DNA of 5,687 nt from a virus (Duplodnaviria > Heunggongvirae > Uroviricota > Caudoviricetes). The notes beneath the pieces were generated by a model that was given only the letters and a program-made list of their open reading frames with translations, was not told the DNA's origin and searched no databases. A program made the translations under genes and the position numbers. Position 1 is the stretch's first letter; every line of letters starts with the position of its first letter. Below are positions 1-5,687 of the stretch, piece by piece. Location of the stretch: IMG/VR virus record IMGVR_UViG_2713896768_000015, one strand, 5' to 3'.

Positions 1-1
1 G

Positions 2-946
2 GCTTACAAAAACTTCTTCCGGAAGCGGGCTGCTTTTCCCCGATTCAAAAAGCGGGGACAGAATGATGCATTCCGCTACCCGCAGGGCGTTAAGCTCGAT
101 CAGGAAAACAGCCGTATTTTTCTGCCGAAACTGGGCTGGATGCGCTACCGGAATAGCCGTCAGGTCACGGGTGTTGTGAAAAATGTCACTGTCAGCCAGT
201 CCTGCGGTAAGTGGTACATCAGTATTCAGACAGAAAGTGAAGTATCCACTCCGGTTCACCCTTCAGCATCAATGGTCGGGCTGGATGCTGGCGTGGCTAA
301 ACTCGCCACGCTGTCAGATGGCACAGTCTTTGAGCCTGTAAACAGTTTTCAGAAAAACCAGAAGACGCTGGCGAGACTTCAGCGACAGTTAAGCCGCAAG
401 GTCAAATTCAGCAACAACTGGCAGAAGCAGAAACGCAAAATACAGCGACTGCATTCCCGTATCGCAAATATCCGCAGGGACTACCTTCATAAAGTCACAA
501 CGACCGTCAGCAAAAACCACGCAATGATAGTCATTGAGGATTTGAAGGTCAGCAACATGTCAAAGTCAGCAGCGGGTACGGTCAGCCAGCCGGGGCGCAA
601 TGTCCGGGCAAAATCAGGTTTAAACCGTTCGATACTGGATCAGGGCTGGTATGAAATGCGCCGCCAGCTTGAGTACAAGCAGCTCTGGCGTGGCGGTCAG
701 GTGCTTGCTGTTCCGCCAGCGTACACAAGCCAGCGTTGCGCGTGCTGTGGTCATACAGCGAAAGAAAACCGCCTGTCACAAAGTAAATTCGTGTGTCGGG
801 CTTGTGGATATACAGCGAACGCCGATGTAAACGGCGCTCGTAACATTTTAGCGGCGGGGCACGCCGTGCTTGCCTGTGGAGGGATGGTGCAGTCAGACCG
901 CCCGTTGAAGCAGGAACCCTCCGAAATGATTCAGGCGACAGCCTGA
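2..946 (+). CDS. tnpB: IS200/IS605-family TnpB (OrfB) transposon-associated RNA-guided nuclease, 5'-truncated by the window edge (C-terminal 314 aa visible)
   Basis: The open frame runs from position 2 with no stop until TGA at 944-946 (the ORF track starts at the first Met, 140). RuvC-like motifs are present: GLDAG (Asp at 284-286), IVIEDL (Glu at 536-538) and [11 protein letters not shown] (Asp at 824-826). A C-x2-C...C-x2-C zinc finger (QRCACCGH...FVCRACG) precedes the last RuvC motif. This is the typical TnpB C-terminal architecture. Confidence 0.9.
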
Positions 947-1030
947 ACATAGCAGGAATCCACACCCCGAAGAGCGTGGAGGATGTCACGCTGCCTCTTT
1001 AATGTTGGCGGCTATCCATGCCGCCGTGTG
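800..1030 (+). ncRNA. Candidate omega-RNA (right-end RNA) locus for TnpB; boundaries approximate
   Basis: Established knowledge: TnpB guide RNAs are transcribed from the 3' end of tnpB through the IS right end, with the guide taken from the flanking DNA. Nothing in the sequence lets me place the scaffold precisely; only the hairpins at 973-992 and 1007-1025 are seen. Confidence 0.25.
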
Positions 1031-1351
1031 CTGTTTAACCTGGTCCAGGTCGATGTATGTGCCAACATATTGACTCAAGTCCTGTAACGTACCGATAAAT
1101 GCATCAGTGCTCTGATCGACGAATTTATCAGCCAGGAAATCAGCAACCAGTTTTGGCACACCATCATGTACCGAAGGTTGTTTTTCCTCGCCACTACTGC
1201 CGCCGGACGCGCCGTACCCCATCTGTTGCATGATCTGGTCAATTTCATCGCTGATATCCAGCAACTCCATGCCACTCGCGGTAGCCGCTTTGGATATCAG
1301 AGCATCCAACTTATCGCTGAGATCCATTAACTCAATAGCTGATAGTGTCAT
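986..1351 (-). CDS. ddrA: Acidic 121-aa protein, last gene of the operon; positional equivalent of P1 DdrA (assignment by position only)
   Basis: The ATG at 1351-1349 overlaps the upstream gene's TGA (ATGA at 1348-1351), indicating translational coupling. The protein is Asp/Glu-rich with a Gly/Ser linker (GYGASGGSSGEE). The name rests on operon position and my recollection of P1, not on alignment. Confidence 0.55.
   Translation of the reverse strand: MTLSAIELMDLSDKLDALISKAATASGMELLDISDEIDQIMQQMGYGASGGSSGEEKQPSVHDGVPKLVADFLADKFVDQSTDAFIGTLQDLSQYVGTYIDLDQVKQHTAAWIAANIKEAA
1007..1025. other. Perfect 6-bp GC stem (GGCGGC / GCCGCC) with 7-nt loop
   Basis: Read directly: ggcggc (1007-1012), tatccat, gccgcc (1020-1025). 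It lies inside the last codons of the convergent 121-aa gene. Possible IS subterminal hairpin, omega-RNA element or transcript-end structure. No downstream U-run, so not a classic intrinsic terminator. Confidence 0.3.
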
Positions 1352-3267
1352 GCCGCTACCCCCGCTTTCTGGATTGCTACCAGCAGATCAGCCAGGTGGC
1401 GAGCAGCGCCATTAACCAGCTCTTCGTTTTCCTCAAAACGCCCGGCAGCCTGAAGGGCTGCAATCGCTTCCCGGACATTGCCCCGGGCGTTACGGATCTC
1501 CGCCATGTCAGTGCTTTGCATATCCATCACGTTATTGAGATATTCAATGGCTTTATTAGCCTCTGCATCTGCTTCGCTAACCGTTTCATCAGGCTGTGCC
1601 GGGGCCGGTTCTGGCTGAGTAATCTCACCGACTTCGGCCTGCAATGCATTGATCATGCTCTGCACCATTTTCTCGGTGCCAGCGCCCCCCGGAAACGCAA
1701 TATTGGGGAAAGTTTTTTGAAACTGAGTCTTCAGCATTACGCGGAACTCGTCTGGTGAGCTGGTGGCCAGCTCCAGAGCTTTTTGTGCATATTTGCCAAA
1801 CGGACCATTAGTAAGTGTCTTCGCCAGGAAGTCGAAAGAATCCTCGCGAGGCAATAACTTCAGGTCGTACTCACTCATTTGCTGATCAGAAAGCGGGGTA
1901 TCGTAAGTAGCAATGCCGTAGCGTGCATATTCATAATACGGGTCACCGTCATCAGGGCGCGGCAGAATTGCTTTGTTACCTTCAGGTATCGCGCCAGGGG
2001 CCGCCGGACGCATTTGCAGGGCATATCGATATGCACCTACAGAGACTTCTGGTTCAGGCGAAGAGCTACCGGTATCCTCCGCTGGTTCAGGTTCGACGTT
2101 TTCCGGTTTATGTTCTTCTGGTTGGACCAGATATTCCGATACATTACCCGCTTTATAGGCTTTAAACAGCTTGCCGAGCGCATCCGCCATGTCCACACCC
2201 TGTATGGATTTAGCCTTGATCATGTACACGCTGCCATCCGAATCGGTTAACTGGATATACCCTTCGCCGTCCCCAATGAATTGCTTCATTGATGCACCAT
2301 TACTGAGCGTCGCTTCCCCGTCCATATGCATACGATTTTTGATACTGGCAAGGCGATCCGTCAGCGCGCGAGAGTGTCCACCAGTCATCCCCGCTGGAGC
2401 AATGGTATCGCGCCCACCAGTGCGATTGAGCTGATCAATCTCCGTCTGCAAACGCTCATTCTCTTCATAAAGAGAATCCGCTTCCGATGCAACAGCGTTA
2501 ATTTTCTGCTCCAGATCTGCCTTCTGCCCTTCTACCGCTGCCACCTGATCCGCGAGGTCGCTCATGGCATCCTCTTTCTGGTCACTGTCAGCCTGTAGTT
2601 GGGTTATTTCATCAACAAGGGCTTTTTTCTTCTTCTGCGCACGCTGGAATTTTGCCGAGTTTTTCTCTGCAAGGTTGGCAAGTTTCATGGTGACCTGCGC
2701 CAGCGTCATATCACGTCCACTCATCGGAGCAACGGTGTGAGTAACGTCTTTTTTATTCAGTAAGAACTGGAAAGCAACCAGCGTATCGCTATTGGTGATC
2801 CGGTTTTCCGCTGTCGGGCTATGAAACAGAATGCTGATAGTCTGACCATCACTGAGCGGAATAATGGCTGGCAGGACTGGCAGCCCGTTAACGTTACGTG
2901 CCCGGCCAATTTCAGCGCCGCCGATCGCGCGCGCGCCGCTCTGGGCCACATCCCCCGTTTTATCACTCCCCGCAGATATTCCGGTACCATTCAGCTTCTG
3001 GTTCAATGCCCGGACAAATGCCTGCATGGTCCGGTGTAACTGCAAACGAGTAGAACTAATCGCCTCCAGTAAATCCGTAGCACACCAGTGGATCGGCGTG
3101 TCATAGAAGAACGTAGCCTCGATTTCTTCCAGGGTGTTGGATTCCGTCATCAGATAGCGGTCCTCACCGGCCATTAATGCGCGATATTCATCATCAGTCA
3201 CCGGCGGGGGAAGCACGTCAAGCCCCGGCTTAATCGTCACCCCTTTATTGATATTGAACTGTTCCAT
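1348..3267 (-). CDS. darA: DarA-like capsid antirestriction (defence against restriction) protein, 639 aa
   Basis: Start ATG at 3267 with AGGAA 6 nt upstream, 1 nt after the upstream gene's stop. The N-terminal ~210 aa share a domain with the preceding 200-aa protein (LxDGQxIxI ... KNSAKFQ). A coiled-coil-like charged segment (~aa 205-285) and two acidic Pro/Glu-rich linkers follow. Size and context match P1 DarA as I recall it. Confidence 0.8.
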   Translation of the reverse strand: MEQFNINKGVTIKPGLDVLPPPVTDDEYRALMAGEDRYLMTESNTLEEIEATFFYDTPIHWCATDLLEAISSTRLQLHRTMQAFVRALNQKLNGTGISAGSDKTGDVAQSGARAIGGAEIGRARNVNGLPVLPAIIPLSDGQTISILFHSPTAENRITNSDTLVAFQFLLNKKDVTHTVAPMSGRDMTLAQVTMKLANLAEKNSAKFQRAQKKKKALVDEITQLQADSDQKEDAMSDLADQVAAVEGQKADLEQKINAVASEADSLYEENERLQTEIDQLNRTGGRDTIAPAGMTGGHSRALTDRLASIKNRMHMDGEATLSNGASMKQFIGDGEGYIQLTDSDGSVYMIKAKSIQGVDMADALGKLFKAYKAGNVSEYLVQPEEHKPENVEPEPAEDTGSSSPEPEVSVGAYRYALQMRPAAPGAIPEGNKAILPRPDDGDPYYEYARYGIATYDTPLSDQQMSEYDLKLLPREDSFDFLAKTLTNGPFGKYAQKALELATSSPDEFRVMLKTQFQKTFPNIAFPGGAGTEKMVQSMINALQAEVGEITQPEPAPAQPDETVSEADAEANKAIEYLNNVMDMQSTDMAEIRNARGNVREAIAALQAAGRFEENEELVNGAARHLADLLVAIQKAGVAA

Positions 3268-3268
3268 G

Positions 3269-3871
3269 TTAATTTCCTGCTTTCAGTTGCTTAAGACGGC
3301 GTTTGAGTTCGCCATTTCGGGCCTTTTCGTTATTGAGTCGGCCTGTCTCCTTATCCAGCTTCGCCCGCAAATCAGTGATCTGCTGTTGATTGAAAGACAC
3401 CGAGTTCTGAGCTGATTTATAAGCGGCAACCACCTGAGCATTCCGCTGTTTTGCCTCTTGCAGGCGCTGAAAGTTGGATTTTACTGCCGGTTTCTTGTCT
3501 ACCGGATTGGCAACACGTTTCGCTTTGGCGATCAGTGATTTCTGGAATTTTGCGGAGTTTTTGCGGGCCGCTTGCCCCATGACGGTACCAAGCGTCTTGA
3601 TATCCGGCGACTGAGCGTTAGGAATAGCTTTTCCATTCAGCCTCACAGACGATATATCGCCAGTATCGTTTACCTGTATGGCAAGAATTTGTCCGTCGTT
3701 AAGAACCAGCTTTGCGGTTTTAACTTTAACGCCATCTTTCGTTGTTGCGCGGTTGCTGGAGTCAACCTCAATTACCGTAACACCGGTTTTATTGATCGTC
3801 GCGATAAGGGATTTCAGCCCCCTTTCATTAACCTGGTCAAAATCGACCGTTGCATACTTATTTTTCGTCAT
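3269..3871 (-). CDS. hdf: Hdf-like protein (homologue of the DarA N-terminal fragment), ~200 aa
   Basis: It shares the motif block with the N-terminal region of the 639-aa protein, including a 21-nt stretch identical at 20 positions (3542-3562 versus 2644-2664, encoding KNSAKFQ). The likely start is the second ATG (3871-3869), which has AGGA 8 nt upstream. The ORF-track start at 3880 has no usable spacing. The C-terminal half is basic and coiled-coil-like. Confidence 0.75.
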   Translation of the reverse strand: MTKNKYATVDFDQVNERGLKSLIATINKTGVTVIEVDSSNRATTKDGVKVKTAKLVLNDGQILAIQVNDTGDISSVRLNGKAIPNAQSPDIKTLGTVMGQAARKNSAKFQKSLIAKAKRVANPVDKKPAVKSNFQRLQEAKQRNAQVVAAYKSAQNSVSFNQQQITDLRAKLDKETGRLNNEKARNGELKRRLKQLKAGN

Positions 3872-4301
3872 CTGACACATCCTGTGCGAGATTTATTACG
3901 TAACTTCTGCGGATTTGCTGAGTAACAGGGAAAATCCGATACAACGGGTTAATGAACGAGTCGCCATGCGTAACCATGACGTTGAAATGCCACAGTCGTT
4001 CTCCTTTACCCATATATTCAGTGGGTATGTACAACCATTCACTGTTTTCGCCCTGTTCAGCCGACGTCAGACAACGTTGTTCGCCTTCAATCACTGTCGT
4101 TGGCTTCTGAACATCGCGGATCCAATATCTGACCGTTGCGCCGCGCAAAAACGGGAATTTAGACCGGTATTTGAACGGCACCCGGATGAAGCCCTGTTTA
4201 ATTTCCACATCACCAAGTTCTAAATGCGTGATGTCCTTGCGTTTTAGCAAATAGCGATCGGCTAAGGCTAACGCAAGAGCGCATACACCCCAGCCAATCA
4301 T
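3858..4301 (-). CDS. lydB: LydB-like protein (holin antagonist in P1), 147 aa
   Basis: The ATG at 4301-4299 overlaps the upstream holin gene's TGA (ATGA at 4298-4301), with GGGAGG 6 nt upstream. Hydrophobic N-terminus (MIGWGVCALALALA). Size and position match P1 lydB as I recall it. Confidence 0.7.
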   Translation of the reverse strand: MIGWGVCALALALADRYLLKRKDITHLELGDVEIKQGFIRVPFKYRSKFPFLRGATVRYWIRDVQKPTTVIEGEQRCLTSAEQGENSEWLYIPTEYMGKGERLWHFNVMVTHGDSFINPLYRIFPVTQQIRRSYVINLAQDVSDDEK

Positions 4302-4627
4302 TTCCCACCTCCCTTTTTCACCAAACTTGTAAGAACATTCAGAATGCTATCGATATTCACTCGTTTCATCCCTGAAATCACCTCATGACCGTTATTGCTG
4401 GCTATCGTTACCATTAAGTACGTAATTGATAACTCCCAGCCTTCGTGTTGCCCCAATAGGTACGCCACCGCGCCAGCTGTCACTGCAACAAAGATCTCCG
4501 TAACCAATCCCAACAAATTGCCAGACTGGCGACCGTCTCGGACATCCATCAGGAACGTGCCTATCCCACCAATTACTGAAAGCAGGAGCGCAATAGCAAC
4601 TGGAGCTAATTCCTGTGTGTCAAGCAC
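4298..4627 (-). CDS. lydA: LydA-like holin, 109 aa, three predicted transmembrane segments and a charged C-terminus
   Basis: GTG start at 4627-4625 with AGGAGG 6 nt upstream. Hydrophobic stretches LAPVAIALLLSVIGGIGTFL, LLGLVTEIFVAVTAGAVAYLL and LSITYLMVTIA, ending in KKGGGK. First gene of the coupled operon. Confidence 0.75.
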   Translation of the reverse strand: MLDTQELAPVAIALLLSVIGGIGTFLMDVRDGRQSGNLLGLVTEIFVAVTAGAVAYLLGQHEGWELSITYLMVTIASNNGHEVISGMKRVNIDSILNVLTSLVKKGGGK

Positions 4628-4633
4628 AAGTTC

Positions 4634-4653
4634 CCTCCTACGTTGTCAGGAGG
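4634..4653 (-). promoter_or_regulatory. Hairpin pairing the lydA Shine-Dalgarno (AGGAGG) with an upstream CCUCCU anti-SD
   Basis: On the minus-strand transcript: CCUCCU (4653-4648), 8-nt loop, AGGAGG (4639-4634), then a 6-nt spacer and GUG. The six base pairs are four G-C and two A-U. Confidence 0.35.
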
Positions 4654-4694
4654 TAATGGTATGCAAAGTAACTTCTCAACCGGTCATTTGTTGC

Positions 4695-4934
4695 TTAAGA
4701 GGCATTTCTATTGAGGTACGAATCGATAAGCCTTTGTAACCTTTCAAAAATGAGCCTGTTATTGATGCTGCAAATAAGAGTCACGCAATTCTGAAGACTT
4801 TCATCCATACCCTTATATTCCGCGAAATACATGCCTATAAAGCCTGCAAGTACGGCAGCAATACACTCGGCCATCAATTGCCTGCATGACGCTTCGTAAC
4901 GTTTTTCACGAACCCCATTCAGAAACGAATGCAC
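4695..4934 (-). CDS. Hypothetical small protein (79 aa; possibly 59 aa from an internal Met at 4874) with one hydrophobic helix
   Basis: ORF in an AT-rich spacer between the invertase and the holin gene. The GTG start has GGAGG only 1 nt upstream, which is poor spacing. The internal ATG at 4874-4872 has a weak AGG 6 nt upstream. Coding status is uncertain. Confidence 0.3.
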   Translation of the reverse strand: MHSFLNGVREKRYEASCRQLMAECIAAVLAGFIGMYFAEYKGMDESLQNCVTLICSINNRLIFERLQRLIDSYLNRNAS

Positions 4935-4958
4935 GCCTCCAAGGATGGTTATAAAAAA

Positions 4959-4984
4959 TATGGTTAAATCAAGGTTTAGGATTG
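4959..4984. other. Candidate invertase crossover site (cix/gix/hix-like 12-2-12 element) overlapping the invertase stop codon
   Basis: TATGGTTAAATC-AA-GGTTTAGGATTG. The right half matches the Din-family half-site pattern (reverse complement CAATCCTAAACC; compare hix TTATCAAAAACC and gix TTATCCAAAACC). The left half is weaker (TAAATC inner core). Confidence 0.4.
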
Positions 4985-5536
4985 AAATGATGACGCCGGA
5001 AACTTCTTATAAAGCGTGGAAACAGCCACATCATAGATGATTGCAACCTGCTTACGGGGGATGCCCTTCTCGAGCAATCGCCGCATTTGCTGCCATGTTT
5101 CTTCTTGGTATTTAGGCCGACGCCCACCTATACGACCTTCTGCGCGAGCTGCATCAAGTCCAGCGCGTGTACGTTCAACGATAAGCTCACGTTCCATTTC
5201 TGCCAGCGCCCCCATTACGTGAAAGAAAAAACGCCCCATTGGTGTACTGGTGTCGATGGAGTCAGTGAGACTCCGGAAGTTAATGCCTCTGTCACGCAGC
5301 TCTTCCACCAGCACAACTAAGTGACGCATGCTGCGCCCAAGACGATCTAACTTCCATACGACTAGGGTGTCACCTCTGGAAAGCATACGGAGAACCTTTT
5401 TTAACCCAGGGCGTTCAGCCTTTTTGCCGCTCGCCTTGTCCTCAAAAATTAGCTCACATCCTGCGCTTTCAAGGGCATTTCGTTGTAAAGCAGTGTTTTG
5501 TTCATTTGTTGATACGCGTACATAGCCAATTAGCAT
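4976..5536 (-). CDS. cin: Serine DNA invertase of the Gin/Cin/Hin/Pin (Din) family, 186 aa
   Basis: N-terminal MLIGYVRVSTNEQ with the catalytic Ser at residue 9, a resolvase/invertase catalytic domain (VWKLDRLGRS, MGRFFFHVMGALAEMERELI) and a C-terminal helix-turn-helix (GIPRKQVAIIYDVAVSTLYKKF). GGTGA lies 8 nt upstream of the ATG. The symbol cin is chosen from the P1-like context; family membership is near certain, the specific orthologue is not. Confidence 0.92.
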   Translation of the reverse strand: MLIGYVRVSTNEQNTALQRNALESAGCELIFEDKASGKKAERPGLKKVLRMLSRGDTLVVWKLDRLGRSMRHLVVLVEELRDRGINFRSLTDSIDTSTPMGRFFFHVMGALAEMERELIVERTRAGLDAARAEGRIGGRRPKYQEETWQQMRRLLEKGIPRKQVAIIYDVAVSTLYKKFPASSFQS

Positions 5537-5655
5537 ATTTTCTGCTCACCATAGTTATTCATAGCAAGCTGCGGATTTTAATTAACAGAAACCAGTGTGT
5601 GTGGAAATCACAAAGTGCATACCGTGCCCCAATGATGTTTTATTGAAAAGCGGGG

Positions 5656-5681
5656 TTACTTTAATGTTTGGTTTAAGAGAA
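5656..5681. other. Candidate crossover site upstream of the invertase gene (cixL-like), at the window edge
   Basis: TTACTTTAATGT-TT-GGTTTAAGAGAA. The distal half (reverse complement TTCTCTTAAACC) is a strong Din-family half-site; the invertase-proximal half is degenerate. It sits about 120-145 bp upstream of the invertase ATG, where gix/cix sites overlap invertase promoters. Confidence 0.4.
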
Positions 5682-5687
5682 CTTGGC

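Follow-up and report, generated by a model that had tools for sequence, protein, structure and literature searches.

Reciprocal hybrid crossover sites flank an inverted 699-bp cin cassette in one lineage of P1-like phage-plasmids

A 5,687-bp piece of a P1-like (Punavirus) phage-plasmid, referred to here as the window, carries a crossover-like element that overlaps the stop codon of a serine invertase gene, and a second element lies upstream of the same gene. From the sequence of the window, an initial annotation proposed that the two elements bracket the invertase gene as an invertible cassette, in the manner of hin, or that the element at the stop codon is a quasi-site able to mediate rare deletions or inversions that extend into the neighbouring operon; the suggestion was added that both elements are hybrid products of past recombination. 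The question raised by this locus is whether the paired elements form an evolved switch or are the traces of a single exchange. The features on which the answer depends are listed below.

1-946, plus strand: 3' part of tnpB of the IS200/IS605 type (OrfB_IS605 and Cas12f1-like TNB)
986-1351, minus strand: ddrA
1348-3267, minus strand: darA (Pfam DarA_N and DarA_C)
3269-3880, minus strand: gene for a DarA_N protein
3858-4301, minus strand: lydB (Pfam LydB)
4298-4627, minus strand: lydA, holin (Pfam LydA holin)
4695-4972, minus strand: lydC remnant, with the ATG and first two codons lost
4959-4984, plus strand: hybrid site A (left half 4959-4970, core AA 4971-4972, right half 4973-4984)
4971-5669: inverted cassette, 699 bp from core to core, containing cin, the enhancer, the promoter region and the lydC-cin spacer
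4976-5536, minus strand: cin, serine DNA invertase of 186 aa (Pfam Resolvase and HTH_7)
5447-5518, minus strand: recombinational enhancer (sis) in the 5' coding part of cin, assigned by identity to the P1 annotation
5582-5607, plus strand: pseudo-site in the cin promoter
5656-5681, plus strand: hybrid site B, the reciprocal junction (left half 5656-5667, core TT 5668-5669, right half 5670-5681)
5670-5687, plus strand: outer end of the C-segment inverted repeat, which is also the outer end of the Sv/Sv' frame (GLRELG...)

The invertase encoded in the window is 100% identical to P1 Cin, and its gene is reversed relative to P1 and all other relatives, lying on the same strand as lydC. The annotated order in P1 is lydB(-), lydA(-), lydC(-), the cin promoters, cin(+), cixL and the C segment. 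The enhancer at 5447-5518 shares 70 of 72 positions with the enhancer annotated in P1 (P1 31678-31749), with Fis binding as a prediction, and cin, the enhancer and the P1cin promoter have moved together and remain intact. At the opposite end of the window, the location of tnpB between ddrA and ddrB is a layout common to 72 plasmids.

The element at the end of cin, site A, has the 12-2-12 layout and the sequence TATGGTTAAATC AA GGTTTAGGATTG, and the TAA stop codon of cin (4976-4978, minus strand) is located inside its right half. The published cixL is TTCTCTTAAACC AA GGTTTAGGATTG (PMC3241671, Table 3). In the P1 record cixL occupies 32212-32237, and the core and right half of site A (AAGGTTTAGGATTG, 4971-4984) match those of cixL at 14 of 14 bases. 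The window has a single exact copy of this 14-mer, where 0.03 occurrences are expected even at two or fewer mismatches. The element first noticed over the invertase stop, with one strong half and an AA core, is thus real, its right half and core being those of cixL; the initial annotation had missed that all P1-like phages normally have cixL in just this place, overlapping the cin stop, and that this has long been known. On a half-site weight matrix built from 13 Din-family sites, the right half of site A scores 11.2 bits, as a perfect cixL half; TATGGTTAAATC, the left half, is a poor match at -4.06 bits, with 7 of 12 identities to a cix half. The total for site A is 7.1 bits, below all 13 natural Din sites scored (16.2-30.5 bits; mix1, 17.0). 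An intact cixL was not found in the window, even at three or fewer mismatches; site A as a whole is therefore not a canonical cixL, of which 14 contiguous bases at 4971-4984 are left, bordered by lydC instead of the C segment.

The upstream element with a TT core is also real and has the sequence TTACTTTAATGT TT GGTTTAAGAGAA at 5656-5681. The initial annotation had missed that it is not the normal site but the reciprocal hybrid: its left half is the cin-side half of a weak site found in relatives and holds the former lydC ATG at 5664-5666, while the core and the right half correspond to the remainder of cixL, on the C-segment side. On the Din matrix site B reaches 13.8 bits; the natural one-good-half sites hixR and mix1 have 16.2 and 17.0 bits. 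Read on the same strand, the core of site A is AA and that of site B is TT, which are matched dinucleotides in inverted orientation. The cognate serine invertase (Resolvase and HTH_7) lies in cis with site A, as does the putative enhancer assigned by identity.

A third element, the pseudo-site TTAACAGAAACC AG TGTGTGTGGAAA at 5582-5607, is a conserved feature shared with P1 and SJ46. It combines one good half (9.0 bits) with an AG/CT core and overlaps the position of the P1cin -35 (5602-5607). It is presumably the cixPp of the older literature and may be an autoregulatory Cin binding site. As an exchange partner it was ruled out on two grounds, its location within the inverted segment and its non-matching core.

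Database matches to 4300-5687 of the window all break at 4964-4971 and from there switch strand. Plasmid p15648-1 (NZ_CP009051.1, locus L003; 99.4%) is the closest relative; in it an intact cixL is present at 5996-6021 and an intact weak site, TTACTTTAATGT TT GATTTAACCATA, at 6693-6718, between cin and lydC. On the opposite strand the weak site reads TATGGTTAAATC AA ACATTAAAGTAA and overlaps the lydC ATG. The left half of site A is the lydC-side half of this weak site, and its right half is the cin-side half of cixL. When the p15648-1 locus was inverted in silico between the two 2-bp cores and compared with 4897-5687 of the window, the predicted product differed at 2 of 791 positions, both of them silent changes in cin, versus 533 mismatches for the parental order. 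The nearest informative bases limit the exchange to the 3 bp C-A-A, core included, and no base was gained or lost. Conversely, re-inversion between the two cores of the window gives back cixL and the weak site, each in the intact form that the relatives have. The suggestion that the two good half-sites are parts of one site, and the elements hybrid recombination products, is accordingly borne out base for base. At the level of sequence comparison, an inversion with exact end points, conservative and reciprocal, is thereby demonstrated, and comparison with the parental-state relatives places the strand exchange within the 3 bp that include the core. The configuration is that of a quasi-site product of a Din-family invertase, with one genuine and one weak parental site, matched cores and two reciprocal hybrids. 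Site A is half a classical cixL and half a weak look-alike, the scar of a one-time flip of the 699-bp cin block. The same p15648-1 locus carries an unusual cargo, a CDS annotated as serine O-acetyltransferase (3155-3727) within the C segment, between tail-fibre genes.

The reading that we favour, at a probability of about 85%, is that these reciprocal hybrid junctions arose by a conservative inversion of the 699-bp cassette in which Cin paired cixL with a quasi-site. In the parental layout, lydC(-) would have been followed by the quasi-site TATGGTTAAATC AA ACATTAAAGTAA over the lydC ATG, the cin promoter, cin(+), cixL (read as CAATCCTAAACC TT GGTTTAAGAGAA) and the C segment. Cin would pair the genuine cixL with the nearby inverted quasi-site, which has the same central dinucleotide (AA/TT), while the enhancer lies between both partners, and would cut both sites at the 2-bp core and swap the halves. 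One product, site A, would combine a quasi-site half with the cin-side half of cixL, and the other, site B, a quasi-site half with the C-segment half of cixL.

Position and the chemistry-like precision of the exchange point to Cin as the probable catalyst: Cin's own site is one of the two partners, and the halves were exchanged at the dinucleotide where that site is cleaved. Serine invertases need the same core dinucleotide in both sites for religation. At the quasi-site position the core is GT in P1 and CT in SJ46, and TT is present only in the lineage of the window, where codon 2 of lydC is TTT. The enhancer lies within the cassette, approximately 150 bp from one partner site, and an enhancer between inverted partners is a geometry like that of the Hin segment. 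Inversion by Cin on a quasi-site is the best explanation because the exchange is conservative and confined to 3 bp that include the core, and because the core match is limited to this lineage.

The quasi-site itself scores -5.2 bits, with 13 of 24 identities to cix halves. Among inversion-competent AA-core 26-mers it nevertheless takes rank 21 of the 1,736 found in 21.9 kb, and rank 3 of the 265 that lie no more than 1.5 kb from cixL. A weak score yet a high rank make it a plausible stochastic choice rather than an evolved site; since about 20 AA-core sites in the 21.9 kb are equal or better, sequence alone does not predict which quasi-site is chosen.

The distribution of the arrangement bears directly on the proposal of a hin-like cassette, in which cin would be a programmed, regularly reversible switch that toggles lydC, Sv' expression and the inversion competence of the C segment. 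The structure lends itself to this reading, because an invertase gene and an enhancer lie between two inverted, core-matched sites, site B approaches hixR and mix1 in score, and the flip exchanges a start codon between lydC and Sv' in frame. Both orientations would then be expected to recur among relatives, but as one collinear place the window arrangement was found in 0 of 21 matching phage records, 0 of 562 matching plasmid records and 0 of 1,031 matching complete E. coli genomes. Exact scans for junction A in GTDB genomes, IMG/VR and JGI metagenomes, and for junction B in IMG/VR, were negative as well, and the gene-position index holds the flipped state in a single contig. The weak site is intact in 28 plasmids with the same spacer and in 7 contigs that encode exactly the DarA of the window, all of which are in the parental state; these 7 contigs, like p15648-1, have both parental sites intact. 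Moreover, the parental partner site is of background grade, each hybrid site has a single good half, and the quasi-site is not conserved, since the matching core is missing in P1 and SJ46. A regular switch is therefore improbable. Of the earlier proposal, the bracketing by sites with opposite cores is structurally right and the cassette has been inverted at least once, but the single flipped lineage speaks against routine switching.

In P1, and likewise in all related records examined from the annotated phage and plasmid collections and the complete E. coli genomes, cin is divergent from lydC and has an intact cixL at its end. The flipped state is derived, because an intact cixL over the cin stop is universal in the P1, P7 and D6 records, the weak site is intact elsewhere, and the lydC ATG, whose position is the same in P1 and SJ46, is removed by the flip. 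Comparison with these relatives thus establishes, from sequence, a derived and rare arrangement.

The one other flipped record is contig LDXD02000015.1 of NCBI assembly GCA_001039215.2 (locus L004), which is collinear with the whole window and identical over 752-5687. Both hybrid 26-mers are present in it and neither parental site is. The window and this contig also share a derived SNP at 3799, an allele missing from all parental-state contigs. Independent recurrence in the two records was rejected, because their differences (34 of 34) lie only in tnpB and the SNP at 3799 is shared; on these sequences the two are one lineage carrying one event, and both may come from one strain or assembly project. 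The 34 differences all fall at 21-751 of the window, a pattern that points to heterogeneity among IS copies, gene conversion or an assembly-consensus effect. In the gene-position index, a junction-specific 95-aa ORF is on record in this single contig, and the 79-aa GTG-start lydC remnant was found nowhere.

A second alternative, less probable still, is an inversion without Cin, by template switching or RecA-independent recombination at the inverted microhomology TTAAA(T/C)CAA. An imperfect 9-bp inverted match does surround the exchange point in both parental sites, but the microhomology is interrupted, the exchange coincides with the dinucleotide at which Cin is known to cleave its own site and is reciprocal and conservative, and intact Cin and its enhancer are present in cis. 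The least likely possibility is an assembly artefact or chimera that corresponds to no real molecule: invertible regions are often mis-oriented in short-read assemblies and the second record is a scaffold with an N gap, but mis-orientation requires long inverted repeats at both ends, whereas these ends share less than 10 bp, and the same junctions occur in both records, with both unique hybrid 26-mers present and both parental 26-mers absent.

The inversion would also affect the C segment. In the second flipped record, the C segment comprises 5,441 bp with perfect inverted repeats of 579 bp and is flanked by an intact cixR and the hybrid site B; a 249-N scaffold gap at 4085-4333 in the tail-fibre assembly gene U leaves the C-segment interior of GCA_001039215.2 incompletely resolved. 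The core of cixR is compatible with site B, relative to which cixR is inverted. Judged by the sites, inversion of the C segment is probably reduced, not abolished: switching would be less efficient because the intact cixR now pairs with site B. As a control for whether database assemblies capture both orientations of the genuine C-segment switch, collinearity with the P1 reference orientation was counted and seen in 114 of 382 records; C-segment sequence diversity confounds this count, and no weight is placed on it. Back-inversion between sites A and B would be possible because they are inverted and have matched cores, and it would presumably be slow, with one good half per site. Site A and cixR are in direct orientation, and deletion between direct sites is disfavoured for enhancer-dependent invertases. 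The proposal of a native quasi-site that mediates deletions into the neighbouring operon found no support.

The flip also alters two neighbouring reading frames. With its ATG gone, lydC has its next possible start at the GTG at 4934, which gives 79 aa versus 93 aa, and LydC is likely to be inactivated or shortened. The former lydC ATG (5664-5666) now stands in frame ahead of the Sv/Sv' frame (MFGLRELG...), and an upstream GTG at 5595 is also in frame with the silent tail-fibre cassette Sv' (5595-5687, plus strand), which is normally startless. The Sv/Sv' frame is open for 551 codons in p15648-1 and is part of a 545-aa ORF in LDXD02000015.1 (6036-7673, minus strand). At the nucleotide level, lydC and Sv' have in effect swapped 5' ends and start codons, and the lydC start codon could drive translation of an anchorless Sv' fragment. 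A scan of 4600-5687 for consensus promoters and terminators gave no more sites than shuffled sequence and is uninformative on read-through from cin into lydC-lydA or on a lydC promoter.

Taken together as a function, these changes would make the cin cassette a slowly reversible second-order switch that lowers C switching, silences LydC and gives the lydC start to Sv', an idea that we regard as doubtful at best. If it were true, host-range switching by the C segment would be down-tuned through a one-good-half site in place of cixL, the accessory holin-like LydC would be silenced, and a free receptor-binding tail-fibre fragment (MF-GLRELG..., approximately 520-550 aa) would be made in lysogens, where it might serve, for example, in receptor masking or exclusion.

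The mechanism is already known as textbook behaviour of serine invertases, so that the conceptual gain is small; the arrangement is rare and belongs to one lineage across all collections searched. It provides a clean natural case in which a DNA invertase has probably acted on a secondary site beside its own gene, fixed in a circulating P1-like plasmid and mapped to within 3 bp. A silent-looking codon polymorphism (TTT at codon 2 of lydC) can create a core-matched quasi-site and with it a risk of self-rearrangement, and a single event can rewire three things together, namely the direction of the invertase gene, how good the host-range switch site is, and the start codons of two neighbours. For annotation, caution is warranted: the bracketing sites of this lineage, which resemble those of hin, are recombination scars and not an evolved switch.

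Among known systems, the P1 cixL system is the closest. Cin is the same protein in both, with the enhancer placed in the 5' part of its gene, and site A shares with cixL the core and cin-side half (14 of 14 bases) and the same overlap with the cin TAA stop. Unlike cixL, site A has the weak half-site from the lydC start in place of the C-segment half and abuts lydC instead of the C segment, with cin reversed. Recombination by Cin of cix with quasi-cix or pseudo-cix sites (cixQ, cixPp) was reportedly described by Iida and Hiestand-Nauer (1983-1987). In that work, too, a genuine site is said to have recombined with a site of limited homology that had identical central dinucleotides, and conservative exchange at the core is said to have given two hybrid sites. 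However, those events were reportedly selected on test plasmids, whereas the event in the window is fixed in a natural plasmid, and cixL was joined there to a site specific to the lineage, over the lydC ATG, rather than to the promoter-proximal pseudo-site at 5582-5607, with its non-matching AG/CT core.

The Min/mix system of the p15B type and the pin-like modules, represented by L012 and SJ46, resemble the window in two respects: the invertase gene runs in the same direction as the lyd genes, and there is a crossover site upstream of the 5' end of that gene. In L012, a mix-type site, TTCCCCTAAACC AA CGTTTTAGTCTT, is located upstream of a 190-aa invertase gene (21-46 and 91-663), and in SJ46 (L002 3305-3529, 3661-4242 and approximately 4306-4331) a pin-like gene naturally runs the same way as the lyd genes, with a site at its 5' end; a persisting 5' remnant of cin shows that the invertase module of SJ46 has been replaced. 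These modules, however, are other invertase genes (190-193 aa) with full sites of their own, whereas the layout of the window results from a flip of cin. With Hin/hix of Salmonella, the window shares an invertase gene and enhancer inside an invertible segment, and site B resembles hixR in having one poor half and a similar score. The hix sites have evolved, and the Hin switch flips routinely and controls fljBA; the sites in the window, in contrast, are accidental hybrids that document one change of state.
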